Source: a virus (taxonomy: Duplodnaviria; Heunggongvirae; Uroviricota; Caudoviricetes). Taken from it: a stretch of DNA of 38,652 nucleotides. The stretch lies in IMG/VR virus record IMGVR_UViG_2695420676_000011; one strand, given 5' to 3'. The notes beneath the pieces were generated by a model. The model was not told where the DNA came from, ran no database searches, and was given only the letters and a program-made list of their open reading frames with translations. Positions 1,382-38,652 of the stretch are shown one piece after another; position 1 is the first letter of the stretch, and the number at the start of each line of letters is the position of its first letter. The translations under genes and the position numbers were made by a program.

Positions 1382-3067
1382 GTGAATATAAACGTCGCCG
1401 AATTGTTAAATGGGAATTACATTCTGTTATTATTTGTGGTCCTCGCGCTTGGGCTATGTCTCGGAAAGTTACGACTTGGTTCGATCCAACTGGGTAATTC
1501 CATTGGCGTTTTAGTCGTATCGCTGTTATTAGGCCAACAACATTTCAGCATTAACACCGATGCGCTTAATCTTGGCTTTATGCTGTTTATTTTCTGCGTC
1601 GGGGTCGAAGCCGGACCGAACTTTTTTTCCATTTTTTTTCGCGATGGGAAAAATTACCTAATGTTAGCACTGGTGATGGTTGGCAGTGCGCTGGTGATCG
1701 CCTTAGGGTTAGGTAAGCTGTTTGGCTGGGATATTGGCCTGACGGCCGGTATGTTAGCAGGCTCTATGACGTCGACACCGGTGCTGGTCGGTGCTGGCGA
1801 TACACTGCGTCATTTCGGCATGGAAAGCAGGCAGCTCTCACTGGCACTGGATAATCTGAGCCTCGGGTATGCCTTAACCTATTTAATCGGTCTGGTGAGT
1901 TTGATTGTTGGTGCGCGTTACTTGCCGAAATTGCAGCATCAGGACTTACAGACCAGCGCCCAGCAAATCGCCCGCGAACGTGGCCTGGACACTGATGCCA
2001 ACCGTAAGGTTTATTTACCGGTGATCCGCGCCTATCGCGTCGGCCCGGAGCTGGTGGCCTGGACCGACGGCAAAAATCTGCGTGAACTGGGTATTTATCG
2101 ACAAACCGGCTGCTACATTGAACGTATTCGACGTAACGGGATTCTGGCAAATCCAGACGGTGATGCCGTGCTACAAATGGGCGATGAAATAGCGTTGGTA
2201 GGCTATCCCGACGCCCATGCCCGACTCGATCCCAGCTTCCGTAACGGTAAAGAAGTTTTCGATCGTGACCTTCTCGACATGCGTATCGTCACTGAAGAAG
2301 TGGTCGTTAAAAACCATAACGCTGTAGGTAAACGTCTCGCACAACTGAAGTTGACCGATCACGGTTGCTTCCTTAACCGCGTCATTCGTAGCCAGATTGA
2401 GATGCCGATAGATGACAACGTCGTGCTTAACAAAGGTGACGTTTTACAAGTCAGCGGCGATGCCCGCCGCGTAAAAACCATCGCCGATCGCATCGGCTTT
2501 ATCTCGATTCACAGCCAGGTCACTGACCTGCTGGCATTCTGCGCCTTCTTTGTTATTGGGCTGATGATCGGGATGATCACCTTCCAGTTCAGCACATTCA
2601 GTTTCGGCATGGGGAACGCTGCCGGGTTGTTATTCGCCGGAATTATGCTGGGCTTTATGCGTGCTAACCACCCGACCTTCGGTTACATTCCGCAAGGTGC
2701 ATTAAGCATGGTGAAAGAGTTCGGCTTGATGGTGTTTATGGCAGGCGTTGGTCTGAGCGCCGGTAGCGGTATTAATAACGGCCTGGGCGCGATTGGCGGT
2801 CAGATGTTGATTGCCGGATTAATTGTCAGTCTTGTGCCCGTGGTTATCTGTTTCTTGTTCGGTGCTTATGTATTGCGAATGAACCGCGCACTATTGTTCG
2901 GCGCAATGATGGGCGCACGCACCTGCGCGCCGGCAATGGAGATCATCAGTGATACAGCTCGCAGTAACATCCCTGCGCTGGGCTATGCGGGCACCTACGC
3001 AATCGCCAACGTCCTGCTGACGCTGGCAGGGACAATCATCGTCATGGTATGGCCAGGATTAGGATAA
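1382..3067 (+). CDS. ybjL: Putative AAE-family transporter YbjL (two TrkA-C/RCK_C domains)
   Basis: 561-aa ORF with GTG start and N- and C-terminal membrane domains around a soluble core; length and N-terminus match YbjL. Confidence 0.85.
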
Positions 3068-3179
3068 AACTGAAGTTGCCCTGAAAATGAAATTTTTTTG
3101 CACAACCGCAGAACTTTTCCGCAGGGCATCAGTCTTAATTAGTGCCACTGCTTTTCTTTGATGTCCCCATTTTGTGGAG

Positions 3180-25279: not shown

Positions 25280-26020
25280 TTACTCAATAGGTTCAAACTC
25301 ATCCTGAGGAATCAGCGTCGATTGACAGGCTTGGCTTAGTACTCCTGATAATTTACATAATAACCGATAGTTATGAGGAGCATCATCGCTAATCTTTTCG
25401 ACCGTTAAAGTGATTGATTTTGGATCATCCAATAACATCTTCTTGATATCATTACTTAAATACCTAGGGCAGTAACCAACGATTTCAGCTGGTTTATCTG
25501 CACGAACGACAACAGCATCCCCATCGTATTCATTTTGAAGATCCAAGCAAAGACGCAAAATTTGCCCCGGTTTCAATTCAGATACACGAGCATTAGCTAA
25601 GCTATTTAAGTAACCAAGTCCATGTAAGAAGAAAAAATGCTCAAAGTTACCATCAGAATCAACATCAATTTTTTTGAAAATCTGCAGCTGATCAGTGCTT
25701 CGTAAGCCTCCCGAGCGAGCAAGAATATCGATAGGATTTACCTTATCTTCTTCAAATCCAAGCCATTTAATGAAACTCGGATACTCTGGACGTCTCGGTG
25801 ATAAAAGGCGATTTTTAAAAAGAGGAAACAATTCTTCCGAAACATAAGTTTCACGAACATCACTCATGCCGCTAAACTTTGTAAATTTAGTAGATTTGAG
25901 AGCACCTTTGGTATACCTGAAAACATACCCCGATTTGCGCTCTTGCAAGTTACCAACAACATGCCAGTCTCTGGTATCTGGTGCCTGCCATGCGACGTAA
26001 ACGGAGTTTGTATTAGTCAT
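25280..26020 (-). CDS. HIRAN-domain protein, putative partner of the HipA-like kinase
   Basis: 246-aa ORF overlapping the upstream kinase gene by 4 bp; C-terminal ~100 aa resemble a HIRAN domain (ILRLCLDLQNEYDGDAVVVRAD...EIVGYCPRYLSNDIKKML); AT-rich. Confidence 0.55.
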   Translation of the reverse strand: MTNTNSVYVAWQAPDTRDWHVVGNLQERKSGYVFRYTKGALKSTKFTKFSGMSDVRETYVSEELFPLFKNRLLSPRRPEYPSFIKWLGFEEDKVNPIDILARSGGLRSTDQLQIFKKIDVDSDGNFEHFFFLHGLGYLNSLANARVSELKPGQILRLCLDLQNEYDGDAVVVRADKPAEIVGYCPRYLSNDIKKMLLDDPKSITLTVEKISDDAPHNYRLLCKLSGVLSQACQSTLIPQDEFEPIE

Positions 26021-26931
26021 TCTAGTAACCTTCTGCGATTTTCCATTACCATTAACGTTGCAAATCTACGTGCGCTGTCGGATATACACGATGAAGGCAC
26101 TTGGTTAAACACATCTGTAATGGAATCTTCTGTTAAAACGCTCAACTTACCTAACCAATGGTCGCGAGCGGCAACTCTCCCTTCAACTGCATGTTGAAAT
26201 GCTTCAACGGTCAGCAAGGGCTTTTTATCAGTTTTTGCTTTGAATAGCTCAGAGCGAGCTTTTCTTACAAAACATGGGATTTGTCGATTTTTATCTTTAG
26301 TATTAAGCCGTTCGTTACGCTCATCATCTAACATCTCCCTTCCTAAACTAGCGGCATGATCGTATGTTGGACACAAAAACTGCTCACCAGTTTCATTGTT
26401 AAGCATGATCGCCCAATTTTCATGATGGCGATCTTGATTACTCACAAGTGCATCGAGCATCAAATATCCACAAAATACATCTGCTGCATTTAGCCCGGTT
26501 AGATCATATACACTCGGAGGAGGCTTGATAGATTCCCTATCTAAACAACCCAATACCCTTGTGACAGTGTGTTCTCTGACCCTTACCGGCTTTTCCCCGG
26601 CTTGTAAAGGCCCAGGATAATCGAATGTCGAACTGTGAAGCACTTCATTTCCCATTACCATCCGGAAACCAGATGGAATGATATTCTGAGTCACCACACC
26701 GAATCGACCATTGTATCGCGCCAAATCATAGCTAGCATGTGGAATGTTAAGCAAATGACATAACTCAGCAGCACACTTTTCAGACCAATGCTCGCCAGTA
26801 CCTGGCCTAGAGTACTTAAACAACTGCAAATTTACAGTGTCATCGGAGAAATAGAACCAAAACTTCTCTTTGGTTCCTAACTGTTCAAGATCGTTAGCTA
26901 CGGGGCTAAGCTCTACCAATTGGTATGGCAT
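26017..26931 (-). CDS. HipA-like serine/threonine kinase (kinase core only)
   Basis: 304-aa product with a HipA-type catalytic loop VSNQDRHHENWAI and downstream CPTYDHAASLG; AT-rich; first gene of a two-gene operon. Confidence 0.6.
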   Translation of the reverse strand: MPYQLVELSPVANDLEQLGTKEKFWFYFSDDTVNLQLFKYSRPGTGEHWSEKCAAELCHLLNIPHASYDLARYNGRFGVVTQNIIPSGFRMVMGNEVLHSSTFDYPGPLQAGEKPVRVREHTVTRVLGCLDRESIKPPPSVYDLTGLNAADVFCGYLMLDALVSNQDRHHENWAIMLNNETGEQFLCPTYDHAASLGREMLDDERNERLNTKDKNRQIPCFVRKARSELFKAKTDKKPLLTVEAFQHAVEGRVAARDHWLGKLSVLTEDSITDVFNQVPSSCISDSARRFATLMVMENRRRLLE

Positions 26932-27102: not shown

Positions 27103-27526
27103 TGCCCGCTTTATGTAGTGGTTTTCATGCACCTGCATGACATAAGCAAAAGCACGCCAGTTCTGGCTGACTTCAGCAAAAACGATCCTCAAACGATCAT
27201 GCGATCTCATGCGTCATAGTCATGCGCTGCCAAGGGAAGCGTAAATCCGTATCTGAATGACTGCTGAAAAGCGAATCATACGGGTTTACAAAGATGAAAG
27301 TTCGCTGTGAGCGAGAAGCGAACCTTGCAACTTTGTTGGCACAGTTTTAACACCAATTTTTTGAGGATAGCTAGAAAACTTGTGGCATAAAGGATCAGTT
27401 TCCCGATCGAACTTTTTATCAAGAAGGGCTCATAGCAATCGCCAGAAGAAGTGATGTTAAAGTATTGAGCTCGGCGTTAAGATTAAATAAATTACAGACT
27501 AATCCAATGTTTTGTGGAAGGATAAG

Positions 27527-28570
27527 ATGGCAGTCAAGCGCGCATACTACGGTAACGATAGTGACCGAGACTACTTAGAGCGGATATTTCAGTCAGCTAA
27601 CATTAACTTTCTCATCGGATCAGGTGCATCCCTCCCAGCGATTAAAGTACTGGGGACAATCGAAACGGATCTTCAGCAGCTTATTAATGATGAACAGGAA
27701 GATGAATACTTAAGGATGGCAGCTGACTTTTTGTCAGATGTTTGGCTACCTCATGAATGCATGTTGAAGCGCGGCTACGGCACCCCCTTCGCACCTCAGG
27801 TGATCACCGATTTGGAATGTACCCGTGCAAATTATGATGCATTTATGTCTTCACTGGAAAAGATACTGACCCGCCGCCGAACTGGCCTACTTCCGAGGCG
27901 TATTAACGTTTTTACAACTAATTATGATTTATTCATCGAAGAAGCTGCCACACGTAATAACAATATTCTTTTTAATGATGGATTCAATAGAAGAGCAAGT
28001 ATTTTGGGAGATGCGGAATTTGATGCGGGTAGCTTTAATCATTCTGTAAGTGCAACCGGAAATCTGTATAATTATAAAGTTGAGCTTCCTACTGTTAACC
28101 TTATAAAACTTCATGGTTCGCTCTCTTGGCAGCATTCTAAAGGGAAAATCATTTATCGTATTGCAGATATTAAGCCGCTTGACTTTCCCACCCTAGCCGA
28201 AATGAAAGGATGGGTACTTGCTCATGCACTTATTCTTCCACGTAAGGAGAAGTTTAAAGAGACTCTACTACAGAACGTTTATTATGATTTACTGAGAACC
28301 TATTCCAACGAGCTTGATAAAGAAGCAACTTTACTAATTGTCTTTGGGTTCTCGTTTGCTGATGAGCACATTGAAACGATAACTAAAAAAGCCCTGCGCA
28401 ACGCCACCCTGAAGCTACTGATCTTTGCTTTCGATGAGGCCAGTGTTAACGGCTTTATGGAGAAATTTCGGGATTACTCAAACGTAGAGATTATTTATCG
28501 GCCGGGAAGAAATGTTGATTTTCCGGTAATGAATAACATTATCACGTGCTATCTGGGAGGCTCGAGATGA
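27527..28570 (+). CDS. SIR2-family NADase of a SIR2-HerA anti-phage system
   Basis: SIR2-like motifs NFLIGSGAS, TTNYD and KLHGS; ATG at 27527 with RBS (ORF track start 27512 is TTG); stop overlaps the HerA start (ATGA). Confidence 0.8.
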   Translation: MAVKRAYYGNDSDRDYLERIFQSANINFLIGSGASLPAIKVLGTIETDLQQLINDEQEDEYLRMAADFLSDVWLPHECMLKRGYGTPFAPQVITDLECTRANYDAFMSSLEKILTRRRTGLLPRRINVFTTNYDLFIEEAATRNNNILFNDGFNRRASILGDAEFDAGSFNHSVSATGNLYNYKVELPTVNLIKLHGSLSWQHSKGKIIYRIADIKPLDFPTLAEMKGWVLAHALILPRKEKFKETLLQNVYYDLLRTYSNELDKEATLLIVFGFSFADEHIETITKKALRNATLKLLIFAFDEASVNGFMEKFRDYSNVEIIYRPGRNVDFPVMNNIITCYLGGSR

Positions 28571-30426
28571 GCAGGCATTTTACTGAAGAGGAAGCGGTGC
28601 TCCGTATAGGCGAAGTCTGTGAGGTTTCTGGACGCGCTGTGACAATTTTGGTCGATAAAAACAAAAATCTCAGTGACTTGTTTTATCAGGGAAAAGTTCT
28701 AAGAAATGTATCAGTGGGTAGCTTCATTGAGATCAAAAAAGGTTTCATGAGCCTGATCGGCAAGGTTGAAGCGGAACGAATCATTGAGGAAAAACATCTC
28801 GCTGGGAGCGGCAGTGATGCCTGGCGATATCGGCGATACCTGACCTCTACTCTTACGGGTTACATTGATCGTACTGGTTGCTTCATTGGTGGTTCGCGTG
28901 AACTACCTCTCATCGGCAATGAAGTCTTCGTGGTAACTGAAGAGATGATACAAACGGTTCATCAGATAGCTAATGCAGACGAAACTGTAATGAGGTTTAC
29001 TCGTACAGATCTTGAAGATATTGAAATTGCACTACCAATCAATGGTCTTATTAATTCCCACATTGCCATTTTCGGTAATACAGGCAGCGGAAAGTCAAAT
29101 ACCCTAGCCGCGCTATACAAAGCAGGTATTGCCCAAGTTAAACATATTCTCGGCAACCACTTTAGTGAAAGATGCAAATTTATTCTATTCGACTTTAATG
29201 GAGAATATACTGCCCCACGCTGTATTACTGACGAGAAGACGGTTTATAATCTCAACACGCACCATGCAAATGGTGACAAACTTCCTCTACCCAGAGAGGT
29301 TCTACTTGAGCATGATATGCTCTCAGTTCTAACCGATGCAACAGACAAAACACAGAAACCTTTCCTGAAGAGAGTTCTTGAGTTTCGCAAGAAAGTGATG
29401 ACTGCTGATAATCCTCTTGAGTTTATGCGCAATATCCTGAAGAAAAAAGTCAGACAAAATCTCTTTAGTAGCGACAAACCCAAATGCGATACTATAAATC
29501 AGTTTCTTAGCCCAATTTTCAAAGATGACCCAGAACTTATATCTGATCTTGAGTATCATTCAACTGCATATAAATGGAAATTGAGGGGTGGTAGTATTTT
29601 CAATACAGAAGCTGATACTGAGCGCTCCTATCTATTCAGTCTTGCAAGCAATTTTTTATTTAAAACTGATATGATTGAAGAACTGTTGGACTTTATGTAC
29701 TTACAGTTAATACAGGAATATTTATCTAACAAGTCTAACCCTGAACATATTTCACCAGTTATAAATAGAATGAGTGCTAACCGTAAAGATATAGCCAAAA
29801 TATTTGATACTTCCGGACAGTCTGACTTTTGGGGTGAACATAATTTCACGGTTGTGAATCTAAATATGGTTAATATAACCATGAAAAAAACGCTTCCTCT
29901 TTTGATAGCCAAGTGGGCTTACAATATGAAGAAAATGTCTACAGAGAAATCTACACTGCACATCATTATAGATGAAGCCCACAATATTTTGTCTAATACT
30001 TCTTTTCGGGAAACGGAAAGTTGGAGAGATTATCGTCTGGAAACTTTTGAGGAAATCATAAAGGAGGGGAGAAAATTTGGAGTTTTTATCACAATTTCCA
30101 GTCAACGCCCTAATGATATATCGTCGACAATCATATCCCAAGCACACAATTATTTTATTCATCGCCTTATTAATCAGAATGATCTGTACGCAATTGAAAA
30201 ATCAGTATCATATATAGATCGACTGACTGAAGAGTCGATTCCAACGCTATCTACAGGAACCTGTATTTTTAGTGGTATCGTCTGCCCCATGCCGCTCAAA
30301 TTAAGGGTAGCTGAACTTCCAATTGAAGAAAAACCTAAGAGTAATACTATTTCCTTCAACGATTTAATACCTGAGAGGCTGGGAGAGGATGACCAGAGCG
30401 ACTACGTAATAACCAGCCCTCACTAA
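28567..30426 (+). CDS. HerA-like (FtsK/HerA superfamily) ATPase of a SIR2-HerA anti-phage system
   Basis: Walker A IAIFGNTGSGKSNT and Walker B LHIIIDEAHN; GGGAGG RBS; translationally coupled to the SIR2 gene. Confidence 0.85.
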   Translation: MSRHFTEEEAVLRIGEVCEVSGRAVTILVDKNKNLSDLFYQGKVLRNVSVGSFIEIKKGFMSLIGKVEAERIIEEKHLAGSGSDAWRYRRYLTSTLTGYIDRTGCFIGGSRELPLIGNEVFVVTEEMIQTVHQIANADETVMRFTRTDLEDIEIALPINGLINSHIAIFGNTGSGKSNTLAALYKAGIAQVKHILGNHFSERCKFILFDFNGEYTAPRCITDEKTVYNLNTHHANGDKLPLPREVLLEHDMLSVLTDATDKTQKPFLKRVLEFRKKVMTADNPLEFMRNILKKKVRQNLFSSDKPKCDTINQFLSPIFKDDPELISDLEYHSTAYKWKLRGGSIFNTEADTERSYLFSLASNFLFKTDMIEELLDFMYLQLIQEYLSNKSNPEHISPVINRMSANRKDIAKIFDTSGQSDFWGEHNFTVVNLNMVNITMKKTLPLLIAKWAYNMKKMSTEKSTLHIIIDEAHNILSNTSFRETESWRDYRLETFEEIIKEGRKFGVFITISSQRPNDISSTIISQAHNYFIHRLINQNDLYAIEKSVSYIDRLTEESIPTLSTGTCIFSGIVCPMPLKLRVAELPIEEKPKSNTISFNDLIPERLGEDDQSDYVITSPH

Positions 30427-31155: not shown

Positions 31156-33570
31156 TTAATACAGGTTCCGCCACTTATCATCTTCCTGCAAACGCTGGTT
31201 CCGATAGAAGATACGCAGGCCTGCTCCTGACGGAATACTGCCGCCGCGAAGGAGTAAATCGACCTCTTTCTCGCTGCCATCAAATCCCCTGGACTTCAGT
31301 TCATACACGAGCTGCTGTCGCTGATGATCTGTAATTCGCTGTTTGTAGTCTTTACGCCGTTTCGGTTTCACCAGGCGTAACCTTGCTGCCAGTTCCCGGC
31401 GCTCTTTTTTGCTCATACTGTGCAGGTAATCGTGCAACTCCTTGTCATCCATACGGGTGATATCAGTTCTGGTATCTCCATCAGCTGATTTGTCTTTCCC
31501 TTGTTGGTACAAATTTTCAGCAAGGGGACAGTTATTGCCACGAGTCCAAGGGGCGCAAGCGCCCTGGTCGGCTGCCGCCTCCTGAACGTCAACGGCCTTA
31601 CGAACCATTTTCCACTTCACTGCATGAGTGCAGATCTTGCCCTCTGCAATGGGTGACCAGATGCCATAAATACGAATGCCGTGATCGCCATAGGCTGTCG
31701 GCTCTTCGTTGATTTCATAAGCGGTTCTGATCAAGTGATATTTGCGGGGAACCAACACGCCGCCCTGCTTCATAATGTAGGTGGCAAAACAGCCAGCATC
31801 AGCAGCAGCCAGAATGGCATCAAGGCGCGGGTTATCCAGTACCGGAGCACCTGCTTTTTTGTCACCCTGTTGCCTTGCCGCCTGACCAGCCAGCAATCGC
31901 AGTTCACGGTAAGCCTGACGCCCCGGAATGCCAAAGAAGCGGAATTGCTGAACACGATGCAGAGACGCCCAGACATTAACGTATTCAGCGTTATCACGCA
32001 GAGATTTACCCGTTTCCTTGCTGATCTCGCCAGCCAGACCACGCCCGTCAATGTTCTTACTGATATATTTCGCGATGTAGCTTGTCGGCGTTCCTTTGCG
32101 CGGGTTAATCAACTCAGACTTAAAGCGCGGCCCAGTGTTATTGCCCAGCTCCTCGCGGTCTTCACGGATGGCAAACTTACGCAGTAATGCAGTGATGGCG
32201 CGGCGGTCTTTTTTGCGCATAAAACACAACAGGTGCCAGTGAACTGTACCGTCATGATGCGGCTCAGCCACCCGCACGCCATACCAGCGCAATCCGGCTT
32301 TGTGCATCGCCTTACGAAATGCAGCAAACATGCCGACCAGATAGTCGCTGCTTTGTCTTACCGTCGAGTTTGTCCAGGTCGGGTTGGGTCTGCCGTTATT
32401 GAGCGTGGAATGGAAACGCGACGGACAGGTGATAGTGTAGAAAACGGCGCAGTCACTGCGCATTTCCGCGATAAGCTCCAGACCTTTAACACAGGCCATC
32501 ATCTCATTGCGGCGATGCGCCGGGTTGCTGCTGCTGGCGTTTACCACATCTTCCATATCCAGCGTGTCGCCGTCTTCGTTCACCAGTTCATGAGAACGGA
32601 AAAACTCCAGCGACTTACGGCGCTGCTCACGTTTATGCATCACGGCTTCATAGCTGACATAGGGGGATGCTTTTTTGCTGACCAGGCAGACAGCACGCAA
32701 CTGCTCTTCCCGCCATTCACAACGCATCTTCCATAATTTCCGATACCACCAGTCGGCACACAACATACGCGCCAACGAACCCGGAATGAGTTCATAGGGC
32801 ACGGGTTTACGGCGGTTTCTTTTCCGACGGAGTTGCTCAAACGCAGGTGGGATGACATCCAGACGCAGGGTTTCCGCTGCCACCTTTTCCCATGTCTTGC
32901 GGATTTCTTCTGGCTTAACGTCATCGGTGGCATACAAATCACCACAAGCTGCATCAAGGCACATACTCATATGCGCAGCTACCAGGGTGGACAGGCGTTT
33001 CACCTGATCCTGACTCATTTCAGGCAGGATCAGCAGGCCGTCCAGCCCTTCATGGCTTGCCATAAAGCGAAAAGATGCAGATAGCTGACTGTCGCGTACA
33101 TGCTCCAGTCGTTCCAGACATGGCTTAATCGTCTCACGTAAATAGCGGGAATAAGCCTTTGGCTTGCCCAGGCTGCTGAAGTATTCAATACGTTGCATCA
33201 GCGGCTTGCTGATATGGGAAGGCTGGGCGTTGACGTCCGCCAGAATGACCATGTCTGAATTAAAACGCTGCTGCTCATGCGCCAGCTTTGCCCGGCTAAT
33301 GAGCTTATCCTGCTCCATTTCGCGCTGGACAGGATCACGTGATTCATTAAAGAAATAACGCTCCCAGACCTGATCACTCAGTGCCTCGCGGCGCAACTGT
33401 TCCTGCTCGTTATCGGCAGCGTACAGAGTGATCAGGTTTGAAAGCGTAGAAACCGGCGCAACTTCCGCCGGGTCCAGATAAGGGTTAATGGCCTTTTTCG
33501 GGCTGTTCCATGAGAATGCTGCAGCAGCCTCGTTAAAGCCGCAGCAGTTGTTCATATCGGCATGACTCAT
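31156..33570 (-). CDS. A: Replication initiation protein gpA (rolling-circle nickase)
   Basis: 804-aa ORF at the end of the early operon, in the P2/186 gene A position. Confidence 0.85.
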
Positions 33571-34424
33571 GCACGTACTCCGTACACGGCAGAACTATCC
33601 ACGCCACGCGAATAATCAAATCCCATCCAGCAGCGCGGCCCGGAAACAGCAATGATTTCTGTTGCTGATTTACCCTCGCCAGCTGCCACACCGATGCTGC
33701 GTTTTACCTTGATATAGTGGTGAGTAAAATTGCGATACAGCGAACGGATCAGGGATGTGTCACTGTTAGAAACAATGACTGGATGTCCTTCTGATGACCG
33801 ATGTTCAAGAACGGATGCCAGGTGATACTGGTCATCTTCAGTGAAACCATCAGTGTGATAGCCGGAAAACGTACCGTCATACGGCGGATCGCAATACACC
33901 ACATCTCCCGCCTTCAACATCGCCAGCGTTTCATCAAAGCTGGCGCAGATAAACGTTGCTCGCTGGGCTTTTTCTGCAAATGTGCGAAGTTCTTTTTCAG
34001 GGAAATACGGATTTTTATAATTACCGTAGGGGATGTTGAAATGCCCGCTCTTGTTATAGCGACATAAACCACGGTAACCGTGACGATTAAGATACAGGAA
34101 ATATACCGCTTTCATGAAATCAGTAATTTCAGTTGAGCAGTTAAACTCCTGCCTTATGTTGTAATAAGCCACCTCCCTGTTTGCGATCTCAAATAAAACT
34201 CTGGCGCGAGATATAAACGATTCACAATCAGCGGAAACCTTTTTATAGAGGTTGATTAAATCAGGATTAATATCCGCAACCAGATAGCTGGGATAATCCG
34301 TTTCCATCATCACAGCACAGGAACCCGCGAAAGGTTCAACCAGTCGCGGGCCAGCAGGAAGGTATTTTTTCAGTTCTGGCATAATGGCGGTTTTATTTCC
34401 CGCCCATTTCAGGATGGTGCTCAT
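33567..34424 (-). CDS. DNA N6-adenine methyltransferase (Dam-like)
   Basis: DPPY catalytic motif ([10 protein letters not shown]) and N-terminal AdoMet-binding region ([10 protein letters not shown]); start set at [11 protein letters not shown] with GGAGGTG RBS, overlapping the upstream stop. Confidence 0.8.
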
Positions 34425-34648
34425 ACAGCACCTCCGTTGTAATGTTTGCCTTTCAGTTCTGCGATTTCCTGACAGGTAATGCAAAGCTGCACTCCCGGAA
34501 TGGCGCGGCGTCGTGCTGGCGGAATTGGCGCTTCACATTCAATGCAAAGTACGCGTGACACGCCCGGTGATTTGGCACGGGCTGCACGGATATGGCGCTG
34601 GCGTTCTTCTTCAACGCGCTGCTGTACGAGATCCATTGCATCAGCCAT
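34421..34648 (-). CDS. TraR/DksA-family C4 zinc-finger protein
   Basis: 75-aa product with CIECEAPIP...CITCQ four-cysteine motif. Confidence 0.7.
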   Translation of the reverse strand: MADAMDLVQQRVEEERQRHIRAARAKSPGVSRVLCIECEAPIPPARRRAIPGVQLCITCQEIAELKGKHYNGGAV

Positions 34649-35711: not shown

Positions 35712-36221
35712 TCACAGCAAACCGAATGAAGCACCGAGGCCAGTCACGGTATCAACTGCACTCGCCATCGCAGGATTAGCCTGTAAACGGGCCTGCAATG
35801 AAACAGCAGCCAGCGCCATCAGTCGTGTTACAGAGTTAATGCTGCTGATAGCATCACGACGACCGGCACTAGTTTTTACATCACCAGATACCGCACCTGC
35901 TGCAACACGCCCGATCTCTGCAGTTGCGCTCATGACGTAATGCGGCAGTTTCTCTTTTGCTACCTCATTAATCGGTACACATGGCAGACAATGAATCTGT
36001 GCCAGAAAACCATCTACCAACGTTGAATCTTCAGTCAGATCGGTAAGCAGCCAGATTTCTGGTGCGGTTAATAAATGAGGTTGAGCTGGGTTCAGCTTGT
36101 TCCGCAGAATCTGCACATTCATGCCCGCACGTTCTGCCAGTTGCACCAGATTGTGGCGCAGTGTGAATGCACGACAGGCTTCATCAAAATGTGGATGTTT
36201 GGAAACTTGGTAATCAAACAT
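35712..36221 (-). CDS. cII: CII-like lysogeny establishment activator (phage 186 type)
   Basis: Product [19 protein letters not shown]... resembling 186 CII over its length; start set at the ATG matching the 186 N-terminus (ORF track start 36230 is TTG). Confidence 0.8.
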
Positions 36222-36285
36222 GGTTTTCAACTCCGAACTTATCGCAAAATCGAACTCAGCGTCTTATTGCGAAAATAGACGTCTA

Positions 36286-36489
36286 TTAAGCAGACAAAGC
36301 ATCAACAGTCAGAGCAGCCATGTTAATCATTACCTTTTCACGTTTTTTGTCTTTACGAAGACGATGACGAGGTAGTCGGCCATCAGCCAACATGTCGTTA
36401 ATCGTATCAATAGAAAGGCCAGTCAGTTCGCTATAACGTTCGATTGTGACATGTGGTGTATTCAGAGTAATTGAAATGTTAGGTGTCAT
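36286..36489 (-). CDS. apl: Apl/Cox-like excisionase and switch regulator
   Basis: 67-aa basic HTH-like protein, first gene of the rightward lytic operon, divergent from the repressor. Confidence 0.65.
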
Positions 36490-36634
36490 AAGGCAACATT
36501 CCTTCTAGATATGGCTTGTGGCGAGCCGTTGTTTGTCGTGATTAGTAGTGAAGGCTCCAAAAGAACACTTCTGGTTCAACTTTAAGATCGCTTTTGGAAT
36601 CTGTCAACGAATTTTGGATTTCTTTGGAGGACTT

Positions 36635-37204
36635 GTGGATTTCAATAGCGGCGGTAAGAAAGCCATAGAACGTTTAGTTGAAGCATATGGGTTCGGTACC
36701 CGTCAGGCTCTATGTGATCATTTAGGTGTTTCTAAGAGCACCATGGCAACGCGCTATATGCGTGATATTTTTCCAGCAGATTGGGTAATCCAGTGCGCCC
36801 TTGAAACGGGCACCTCGCTTAATTGGCTAACAACAGGGCATGGTTCAAAGCAAGCATCAGCAAATACAAATACTATAGAAGTAGAAAAATATTTATTGTC
36901 TGATGGAGCATTGCAGAAAGACGGTTTTTATATTTTTGATAAGGGATTTCTACCCTCTACGTTTAAAAAACCTTTTGTCATCACAGATAACAATTCTGAA
37001 TTTATTTGTGATAAAGAATTTGATGATATACGTGATGGTAAATGGGTAATAAGTATTGATGGCGAAATAACTATCCGTGACATTACTCGTTTACCCGGTG
37101 GAAGAATCTTCGTCGAGGGTGGAAACAGAGCCTTCGAATGCAAGATAGAAGACATTGAAATAATTGGTAAAATTATAAGTTTAACAGTCAAGTATGTTAA
37201 ATAG
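36635..37204 (+). CDS. cI: CI-like immunity repressor (phage 186 type)
   Basis: Product resembles 186 CI (EAYGF...CALETG...); start placed at in-frame GTG 36635 with GGAGG RBS rather than 36548. Confidence 0.7.
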   Translation: MDFNSGGKKAIERLVEAYGFGTRQALCDHLGVSKSTMATRYMRDIFPADWVIQCALETGTSLNWLTTGHGSKQASANTNTIEVEKYLLSDGALQKDGFYIFDKGFLPSTFKKPFVITDNNSEFICDKEFDDIRDGKWVISIDGEITIRDITRLPGGRIFVEGGNRAFECKIEDIEIIGKIISLTVKYVK

Positions 37205-37219
37205 TACCGGGAGGAAACT

Positions 37220-37411
37220 ATGCTTGGTAAGGTATTTTTTGTGGTTTTGTCATGTTCTTTGTTATTAAACCCACTAACTACCTATGCTAGAAATTATCCC
37301 TGCTCAGGGAAAAAGGGAGGTGTTTCTCACTGTACCTCAGATGGCAAATTCGTTTGCAATGATGGAACTATTAGTAAATCCAAAAAAATCTGTACTAAAA
37401 ACTCACGATAA
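37220..37411 (+). CDS. Small secreted cysteine-rich protein (cargo between cI and int)
   Basis: 63-aa ORF with GGGAGG RBS, N-terminal signal peptide and four Cys in a ~40-aa Lys-rich mature part. Confidence 0.55.
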
Positions 37412-37599
37412 CTTTTGCTTTTATATCTGCGTCTAAAATAAAAATGAGCCGCAGGTTAACCGCAAAAGTTACATGCTCACATAGCAAAAAGAATAGCCAA
37501 CTTAATTATGGCTTCAGTGAGATGTATGGTCGTAGGATTTCATACATTGACACTGGTTATACATACAGTGAAAATGCTCTCTACTGGAGGGCATTTTTT

Positions 37600-38652
37600 A
37601 TGGCAGTACGAAAACTCACCACTGGGAAATGGCTTTGCGAATGTTACCCCGCCGGACGAAGTGGGCGTCGTGTGCGTAAACAATTCGTCACCAAAGGCGA
37701 AGCACTGGCTTTTGAGCGCCACACGATGGAAGAAACCGAAGCAAAGCCCTGGCTGGGTGAATCAGTGGATCGTCGAACACTGAAAGACGTGGTTGAGCTA
37801 TGGTTCAAACTACATGGTAAATCTCTGACAGCTGGGCAGCATGTCTATGACAAATTGCTGTTGATGGTTGACGCTCTGGGCAATCCTCTTGCAACCGATC
37901 TCACCTCTAAAATGTTTGCCCACTATCGAGATAAACGCCTGACAGGCGAGATCTACTTCAGCGAGAAATGGAAGAAAGGAGCAAGCCCGGTCACCATTAA
38001 CCTGGAGCAAAGCTATCTAAGTAGTGTTTTTAGCGAACTATCCCGTCTGGGCGAATGGTCGTATCCGAACCCACTGGAGAACATGCGAAAATTCACCATC
38101 GCAGAAAAAGAGATGGCATGGCTTACCCATGAGCAGATTGTTGAATTGCTGGCTGATTGCAAACGTCAGGACCCAATTCTGGCACTGGTAGTTAAGATAT
38201 GCTTAAGCACAGGCGCACGCTGGCGTGAAGCCGTAAATCTTACCCGCTCACAGGTGACCAAATACCGAATTACCTTTGTCAGAACGAAGGGGAAGAAAAA
38301 CAGAAGCATCCCTATCAGTAAAGAGCTTTACGAAGAGATCATGGCGCTTGATGGGTTCAATTTCTTCACAGACTGCTATTTTCAATTTTTATCCGTGATG
38401 GAAAAAACGTCTATCGTACTCCCTCGCGGTCAACTCACACACGTTCTGCGCCATACGTTTGCGGCGCACTTCATGATGTCGGGTGGAAACATTCTGGCCT
38501 TACAAAAAATTCTCGGACACCACGATATAAAAATGACTATGCGTTACGCACATCTGGCACCGGATCATCTGGAAACGGCGCTCCGTTTCAATCCTCTGGC
38601 AACGCTGCCAAGTGGCGACAAAGTGGCGGCAGCGGTTGGCATTACCCCGTAA
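37600..38652 (+). CDS. int: Tyrosine integrase
   Basis: Start at MAVRKLTTGKW with GGAGGG RBS; C-terminal catalytic region with LRHTFA...HHDIKMTMRYAHL; stop codon is the last three bases of the window. Confidence 0.85.
   Translation: MAVRKLTTGKWLCECYPAGRSGRRVRKQFVTKGEALAFERHTMEETEAKPWLGESVDRRTLKDVVELWFKLHGKSLTAGQHVYDKLLLMVDALGNPLATDLTSKMFAHYRDKRLTGEIYFSEKWKKGASPVTINLEQSYLSSVFSELSRLGEWSYPNPLENMRKFTIAEKEMAWLTHEQIVELLADCKRQDPILALVVKICLSTGARWREAVNLTRSQVTKYRITFVRTKGKKNRSIPISKELYEEIMALDGFNFFTDCYFQFLSVMEKTSIVLPRGQLTHVLRHTFAAHFMMSGGNILALQKILGHHDIKMTMRYAHLAPDHLETALRFNPLATLPSGDKVAAAVGITP

Follow-up and report, generated by a model that had tools for sequence, protein, structure and literature searches.

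A YdcA-family gene directly behind the cI repressor of a 186-like Escherichia coli prophage: identity, setting and possible role in hindering DNA entry

[quoted passage not shown] The question is raised by the window, a stretch of 38,652 nucleotides of viral DNA (IMG/VR record IMGVR_UViG_2695420676_000011), for which a first-pass annotation had suggested a lysogenic-conversion factor acting, for example, in superinfection exclusion or envelope modification. The reading that we tentatively prefer, at a probability of roughly 0.4, is that the gene encodes a periplasmic, disulfide-bonded cargo protein that would be made together with CI in lysogens and would hinder the entry of foreign DNA. The setting, the family and the domain relatives of the gene are set out below, together with the explanations that compete with this reading.

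The lysogenic operon and its small second gene

The element is a 186-like (Peduoviridae) E. coli prophage, which adjoins rcdA/ybjJ in E. coli chromosomes. The features that surround and make up the small gene are as follows.

35712..36230, minus strand: CII (CP76) gene, by which the phage is recognised as 186-like (Pfam Phage_CP76, 2e-41)
36286..36489, minus strand: Apl/Cox-like gene, divergent from cI, at the start of the lytic operon (weak HTH_17 and Phage_Cox matches; position as 186 apl)
36635..37204, plus strand: cI repressor gene of the 186 type, first gene of the lysogenic operon (Phage_CI_repr 3e-31, Phage_CI_C 5e-29)
37210-37214, plus strand: Shine-Dalgarno sequence GGAGG of the small ORF, 5 nt 5' of its ATG and 6 nt 3' of the cI TAG stop
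37220-37411, plus strand: ydcA-family ORF of 63 codons, ATG to TAA (read from the sequence)
37220..37288, plus strand: predicted signal-peptide codons, residues 1-23 (hydrophobic core, -3/-1 rule)
37289..37408, plus strand: mature YdcA-family domain, 40 aa (NF007463, PHROG 6000, invariant columns)
37409..37411, plus strand: stop codon TAA of the ydcA ORF (read from the sequence)
37412..37521, plus strand: AT-rich spacer, which travels with the cI-ydcA cassette (absent from phages sharing only the integrase)
37522..37599, plus strand: conserved int leader of 78 nt (common to sibling phages whatever the cargo)
37600..38652, plus strand: tyrosine integrase gene, last gene of the operon and end of the prophage (Int_N 3e-32, Phage_integrase 1e-21)

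The 63-aa ORF with a strong ribosome-binding site that the first-pass annotation had placed here was recovered at exactly the same coordinates, and its location in the lysogenic operon between cI and int held as well, the ORF beginning 15 nt after cI. The longest-ORF starts that had been taken for the two flanking genes were replaced by those of RefSeq: cI begins at the GTG at 36635 in the RefSeq-equivalent annotation, and int at the ATG at 37600. Because of this int start, the ORF is followed by a structured spacer of 188 nt and not immediately by int, and the gene order reads cI, ydcA as second gene, spacer, int. A scan revealed neither a terminator-like site in the 15-nt gap between cI and ydcA nor a promoter-like site on the plus strand just upstream of ydcA, and co-transcription of the two genes is the simplest reading of this arrangement. 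Since ydcA follows cI so closely and has a Shine-Dalgarno sequence of its own, with no terminator-like site between the two genes, its product should be made in lysogens. A near-consensus promoter-like site on the minus strand (37200-37172; TTAACA-17-TATAAT, 11/12) is directed, in antisense orientation, towards the 3' end of cI; it may be due to chance, because such sites are no more numerous in the region than in shuffled sequence and the DNA is AT-rich.

The annotated lysogenic operon of phage 186 consists of the promoters pL/pE followed by cI, int and Orf69; the stop of its cI overlaps the start of its int, and its cI-int slot holds no gene. Given this overlap, the window carries an insertion, composed of ydcA and the spacer, inside the operon. 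The G + C content amounts to 33-37% over positions 36800-37600, compared with about 47-53% for int. Among 5,426 complete E. coli genomes, 848 match the segment 36500-37620, and in 592 of these the match extends over 80% or more of it. The whole cI-ydcA segment is present in about 11% of the complete genomes; the gene is thus found in roughly one in nine of them, and has relatives in many Proteobacteria.

Behind ydcA, the sequence is homologous to that of integrase-sharing phages only from 37522 onwards, and in a carrier of the defence gene PD-Lambda-1 the cargo ends 83 nt before int. The spacer as a whole (37405-37605) folds with z = -5.65 relative to shuffled sequences. A long imperfect hairpin (37409-37471, plus strand) begins at the ydcA stop codon; no compensatory changes occurred in it among 30 spacer variants, and, as the changes in diverged alleles break pairs, there is no evidence for selection on this structure. 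A second hairpin at approximately 37566-37602 (plus strand; AAAAUGCUCUCU-ACU-GGAGGGCAUUUU, then UU-AUG) resembles an intrinsic terminator placed immediately before int. Its stem is invariant in the same 30 variants. The hairpin sequesters GGAGGG (37586-37591), the Shine-Dalgarno sequence of int, and a run of T comes after it. This int-leader hairpin may keep int expression low in lysogens. A search of positions 36200-37700 against Rfam gave no match.

The suggestion that the product starts with a signal peptide was borne out by prediction. The call, for a peptide of the signal peptidase I type, was rule-based and relied on the -3/-1 rule, the hydrophobic core and an alignment of homologues. 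The predicted Sec-type peptide comprises 23 residues, one of them a lysine, with a basic n-region, a hydrophobic core and T-Y-A before the cut; position -1 is Ala in all 32 aligned homologues, and position -3 is A, S, T or V in 32 of 32. The homologue alignment is variable before the predicted cut and highly conserved after it. The mature part consists of 40 residues (4.3 kDa, pI 9.7, net charge +7), including seven Lys, two Arg, two Asp and four Cys. The earlier description of a Lys-rich region of about 40 residues with four cysteines therefore fits the mature part (C28, C38, C46 and C58, all invariant), but not the whole protein, which has five cysteines; the fifth, Cys12, is unconserved and lies in the signal peptide. 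An AlphaFold2 model reached a mean pLDDT of 90 for residues 31-40 and of 92 for residues 41-50. The product would leave the cytoplasm by way of Sec, lose its signal peptide after Ala23 and acquire two disulfides in the periplasm. Lipid attachment at Cys12 (VLSC) was considered and rejected: the residue is too near the N-terminus, a lipidated Cys being expected some 15-35 residues from the start, only seven hydrophobic residues precede it, and the putative lipobox is unconserved, homologues having LLFC, LLIC or no Cys at this place.

Membership of the YdcA family and purifying selection

The translated ORF matched the NCBIfam model NF007463 (PRK10040.1-2) with 115.8 bits, against a cut-off of 93 (E = 5e-34; 58 of 58 profile positions covered), and PHROG 6000 with E = 2e-34. 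For Pfam PF27300, precomputed matches exist on the cluster representative (P0001, 98% identical to the window protein) and on nearly all homologues; the Pfam copy that was searched predates this entry and gave nothing for the ORF beyond a GULLO2-like match below threshold. The window protein contains the family core PCSGxKGG(V/I)xxC...F(V/I)CxDGxxSxSxxxC with its four cysteines, as well as every invariant column of the alignment (P, C, S, G, G, C, F, C, G, S, S, C). In RefSeq, an identical protein at the identical place is labelled 'YdcA family protein' (WP_000900883.1). As the family is known and named and this label exists, the gene itself is not new as an object but a member of the YdcA family. 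Two further bearers of the name are namesakes only, the ydcA product of plasmid pS88 being an unrelated methylase and YdcA of B. subtilis an unrelated rhomboid protein.

A profile search of 1.84 billion representative proteins yielded 449 homologues at E <= 0.001, of which 264 reached E <= 1e-10. When alleles were compared with the window over 33 codons of the mature domain, several E. coli alleles differed by eight or nine synonymous and no non-synonymous changes, another allele by 11 synonymous changes and one non-synonymous change, and one allele by about 20 synonymous and 2.5 non-synonymous changes. The mature YdcA domain is thus under strong purifying selection. Together with the HMM and PHROG matches, this selection excludes a chance ORF. 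That the ORF might be spurious or decaying within an AT-rich spacer could have been suspected from its shortness and from the low G + C content of the region. This idea was left with practically no probability, as it is already refuted by conservation: the score exceeds a curated HMM cut-off, homologues are numerous, synonymous changes (8-20) far outnumber non-synonymous ones (0-2.5), and the ribosome-binding site is canonical.

The closest known relative is YdcA of E. coli K-12 (b1419; NCBIfam NF007462), which shares with the window protein the signal peptide, the motif PCSGxKGG(V/I)xxC...F(V/I)CxDGxxSxSKKxC, the four cysteines and a length of about 57-63 aa. It differs in being encoded by a chromosomal gene that adjoins cybB outside any prophage, and with the K-12-type model NF007462 the window protein reaches 68.5, short of the required 118. 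Over the 33-residue mature core the two proteins are 76% identical. According to one report, deletion of E. coli ydcA makes cells sensitive to 3-hydroxypropionate, and acid induces the gene through YdcI (PMC7642389). Apart from these weak phenotypes, no functional study of the YdcA family was found in the literature searched.

From this relationship it could be argued that the prophage protein is, like chromosomal YdcA, a host-fitness factor that serves envelope homeostasis or stress resistance, such as tolerance of acid or organic acids, and does not act on phages or DNA at all. Besides the high identity of the mature core and the published phenotype, the many family members in ordinary chromosomal contexts favour such a role, and the domain has evolved so slowly that a conserved host target seems likelier than an arms race. 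On the other hand, the phenotype is weak and stems from a single study, the slot is taken in sister phages by systems dedicated to anti-phage defence, and a stress role leaves the recurring fusions to nucleases, described in the following section, unexplained. We regard a pure host-fitness role as rather unlikely, though as the likeliest of the alternatives.

Secreted nucleases and Legionella Dis2 as domain relatives

YdcA-like N-terminal domains are fused to nucleases of three unrelated secreted folds: SNase (P0119 and a Methylococcales ORF, L146 4569-5321), Endonuclease_NS (P0184, P0212, P0216) and a PLD-type nuclease (P0214). In the long proteins scanned, no fusion partner other than these nuclease domains was recognised, the remaining architectures consisting of tandem repeats, Lys/Ala-rich tails and a Cys-rich basic extension. 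In Providencia proteins (L107, L119, L144, L148) a YdcA-like domain is joined to long Lys/Ala-rich repeats. That periplasmic nucleases of mobile elements prevent the uptake of DNA is known (PMC12378983). Such proteins, namely IdeA and SxnA of Vibrio ICEs and Dns of a Campylobacter prophage, resemble what is proposed for the window protein in being extracytoplasmic, encoded by mobile elements and active on incoming DNA, but the window protein has no catalytic domain.

A second relative is Dis2 (Lpg0823; PDB 7MUC/7MUD chain AN) of Legionella, which was matched by the full-length YdcA profile with E = 5e-5 and still ranked first, with a marginal E = 0.011, when only the mature part was used. A Foldseek search with the YdcA model likewise placed Dis2 at the top (probability 0.97, 38-39% identity over 39 columns), the remaining hits being noise; hhalign aligned YdcA with Dis2 at E = 9e-6, and PF27300 is recorded on a Dis2 homologue. 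LDL-receptor class A repeats scored close to Dis2 with the mature-only profile. Since only Dis2 was also found by Foldseek, hhalign and PF27300, the LDL-receptor match was judged to be noise caused by cysteine spacing and dismissed.

Dis2 consists of two similar disulfide-pinned lobes and resides in the periplasm, close to the outer membrane, where it touches the lipoproteins DotC, DotD and DotK (PMC8486379, PMC12716638). The literature calls it Legionella-specific and without homologues. Each lobe carries a ...KMGG(I/V)xxC...G..VCN(N/D)G..S motif, and Dis2 is the only solved structure that resembles the YdcA model. Dis2 thus appears to be a tandem of two YdcA/PF27300 domains. Dis2 differs from the prophage protein in having two lobes and five disulfides and in being a stoichiometric part of a type IV secretion system (T4SS), whereas the prophage protein is a single free domain with four cysteines. 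No T4SS genes were detected in the window or among the neighbours of homologues. Neither the nuclease fusions nor the relationship to Dis2 was found to be described in the literature searched.

Taken together, the nuclease fusions, the kinship with Dis2 and a net charge of +7 hint at a binding module outside the cytoplasm, with DNA or an outer-membrane-proximal machinery for the passage of DNA as its possible target. The prophage protein would then be a stand-alone copy of this module. In the fusion proteins the same module would deliver nucleases to DNA outside the cytoplasm or hold them there, and in Dis2 it would dock under the outer membrane on the lipoproteins of a secretion machine derived from DNA transfer.

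Small size, a high positive charge and four cysteines are also the composition typical of antimicrobial peptides, and the family is widespread on mobile elements of host-associated bacteria. The product could accordingly be imagined as a secreted cationic peptide that acts on other cells, either as a bacteriocin- or defensin-like agent or directed at eukaryotes, after leakage or release in vesicles. A Sec signal alone delivers only to the periplasm, however; the neighbour survey revealed no accompanying immunity or export gene, and both the nuclease fusions and the structural role of Dis2 in the envelope point to a binding module that works within the producing cell. This explanation is considered very improbable.

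The cI-int slot, its occupants and possible exclusion of foreign DNA

To what extent the position of ydcA is shared among close relatives was apparent from 80 IMG/VR prophage contigs whose integrases are at least 99% identical to that of the window. Their cI-int slots are occupied as follows.

41 of 80 contigs: ydcA alone (no PADLOC model)
5 of 80 contigs: ydcA followed by PDC-S20 / KAP NTPase (PADLOC 1e-171)
12 of 80 contigs: PD-Lambda-1 (PADLOC 3e-120)
3 of 80 contigs: Old (PADLOC 9e-235)
2 of 80 contigs: PDC-S20 alone (PADLOC 7e-78)
2 of 80 contigs: PDC-M18A with a second gene (PADLOC 2e-36)
2 of 80 contigs: AriA/Old-like ATPase (PADLOC 2e-23)
remaining 13 of 80 contigs: various unknown genes (no PADLOC match)

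Because prophages with nearly identical integrases carry different defence genes at this place, the cI-int slot is a variable hotspot for cargo and defence genes. Within the surveyed sample ydcA is its commonest occupant; wherever present, it directly follows cI, and any extra cargo sits downstream of it. The window protein itself matched no family of PADLOC-DB 2.0 at E <= 0.01. In some siblings (L187 2394-3921, L223 2372-3918) the PDC-S20 / KAP-NTPase gene, which encodes 443-446 aa, is inserted 2-13 nt after ydcA and replaces the spacer, resulting in the order cI, ydcA, PDC-S20, int.

Hotspots of this kind are known from P2-like prophages, where different defence systems also occupy a fixed position in close relatives, and a cI-int defence hotspot has been described in K139-like Vibrio phages (Rousset et al., 2022, PMC9122126). 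The case of ydcA differs from the P2-like hotspots in that the gene is no recognised defence gene and stays glued to cI. No description of its position in the cI-int hotspot of E. coli 186-type phages was encountered in the literature searched. The closest functional analogue, judged solely by position and compartment, is Glo of the Vibrio phage K139 (Peduoviridae), a small periplasmic protein encoded between cI and int and annotated for phage exclusion. Glo differs in its length of 137 aa and in that another gene separates glo from cI; homology between the two proteins was rejected (BLASTP E = 0.16, 7/30 identities). The hotspot slot and the Glo precedent provide circumstantial support, by analogy, for a protective role of ydcA in lysogenic conversion.

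Homologues at the same position in other P2-family prophages, which had been proposed as a check of the first-pass annotation, do exist: cI is followed by ydcA in Yersinia, in Pasteurellaceae and in the distant P2-family phage HP2 of Haemophilus. In HP2 (NC_003315) an intact YdcA-family gene of 60 codons lies at 2920-3102, unannotated in the RefSeq record. Its ATG overlaps the cI stop (TAATG), an overlap seen in Haemophilus phages, and the order is cI, the ydcA homologue, orf1(S) (254 aa with a signal-peptide-like start) and int. Across the cI-ydcA phages CI is only 34-37% identical to that of the window, compared with 73-85% identity for mature YdcA, and the gap between the genes ranges from -4 to +47 nt in all but one of the loci compared. 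This tight linkage of ydcA and cI across P2-family phages is likewise not described in the literature searched.

A survey of neighbouring genes at 76 species-representative loci with a YdcA homologue placed these phages in a wider context. A 186-type CI gene lies directly upstream in six of the 76 loci (Escherichia, three Yersinia, Pasteurellaceae) and an integrase gene directly downstream in five, and no recurring partner gene was found among the flanking genes of these species-level loci. Many homologues are chromosomal, with unrelated neighbours and no adjoining mobile-element genes, as in the cybB-ydcA pair of E. coli. Plasmids rarely carry a homologue (58 of 72,556, mostly from Acinetobacter and Rhizobium). 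A link to conjugation, as implied by the UniRef name 'Conjugal transfer protein' and by ydcA in the gonococcal genetic island of Neisseria, was considered and found to be unsupported given the lack of T4SS neighbours; it is further weakened by the fact that only 14 of the 58 matched plasmids are conjugative.

In Moraxella (Mcat) and Acinetobacter phages the homologue is found among the structural (head and tail) genes, in the same orientation and outside the lysogeny module. Such a location would make sense if the protein served the phage itself during infection, lysis or virion release, for instance by binding peptidoglycan or the outer membrane to tune lysis or by stopping the re-adsorption of virions to debris, and did not confer a trait on the lysogen. 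This function would also agree with the annotation of the CII-dependent promoter pE of phage 186, which drives the lysogenic operon early in infection as well. However, in P2-family phages ydcA is tied to cI and not to the lysis or late operons, closely related phages without the gene indicate that it is dispensable for the phage life cycle, and chromosomal and small-plasmid copies exist without any phage. A phage-serving function therefore appears improbable.

Our preferred reading remains the hindrance of foreign-DNA entry. If ydcA is co-transcribed with cI, the product would be made continuously in the lysogen, and the free domain might bind either incoming DNA or an entry apparatus close to the outer membrane, so that the entry of foreign DNA would be hindered in a manner resembling superinfection exclusion. 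Lysogen and prophage alike would be protected, as they are by the defence genes that sister phages carry in the same slot. Several observations weaken this reading: many family members are chromosomal, the Moraxella and Acinetobacter copies lie among structural genes, and there is no PADLOC match. The nuclease fusions, moreover, fit an anchor in the cell envelope as well as a DNA binder, and according to the literature the loss of Dis2 has only subtle effects, which also counts against the proposed function. Phage DNA normally crosses the periplasm inside a channel derived from the tail, so that simple DNA binding might not exclude phages.

A bolder and rather doubtful extension is that the YdcA domain in general constitutes an unrecognised module that binds DNA or docks at the outer-membrane-proximal apparatus of DNA entry, the prophage copies being exclusion factors of about 40 residues. 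If so, one-gene factors expressed together with the repressor would block phage, conjugative or transforming DNA in the periplasm, and both Legionella Dis2 and the domains found at the N-termini of several secreted nucleases would be accounted for by this one module. As an exclusion factor, the prophage protein would be among the smallest known and would give a function to E. coli YdcA and to Dis2. Independently of function, no other gene in the sample occupies this defence hotspot as often as ydcA, and the YdcA domain is now linked to secreted nucleases and to a solved T4SS component.

The window harbours further genes related to defence at other places. An anti-phage pair of SIR2 (352 aa, PADLOC 6e-211) and HerA (626 aa, 7e-267) is encoded at 27512-30426 on the plus strand. 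The portal/terminase genes lie to one side of the pair and the replication gene to the other, so that its location is that of the classical P2 tin/old hotspot. Adjoining it, a candidate two-gene defence system on the minus strand (25280-26931) consists of PDC-M03B (246 aa, 3e-93) and PDC-M03A (304 aa, 2e-122). A Dam-like orphan methyltransferase is encoded at 33567-34484 on the minus strand.
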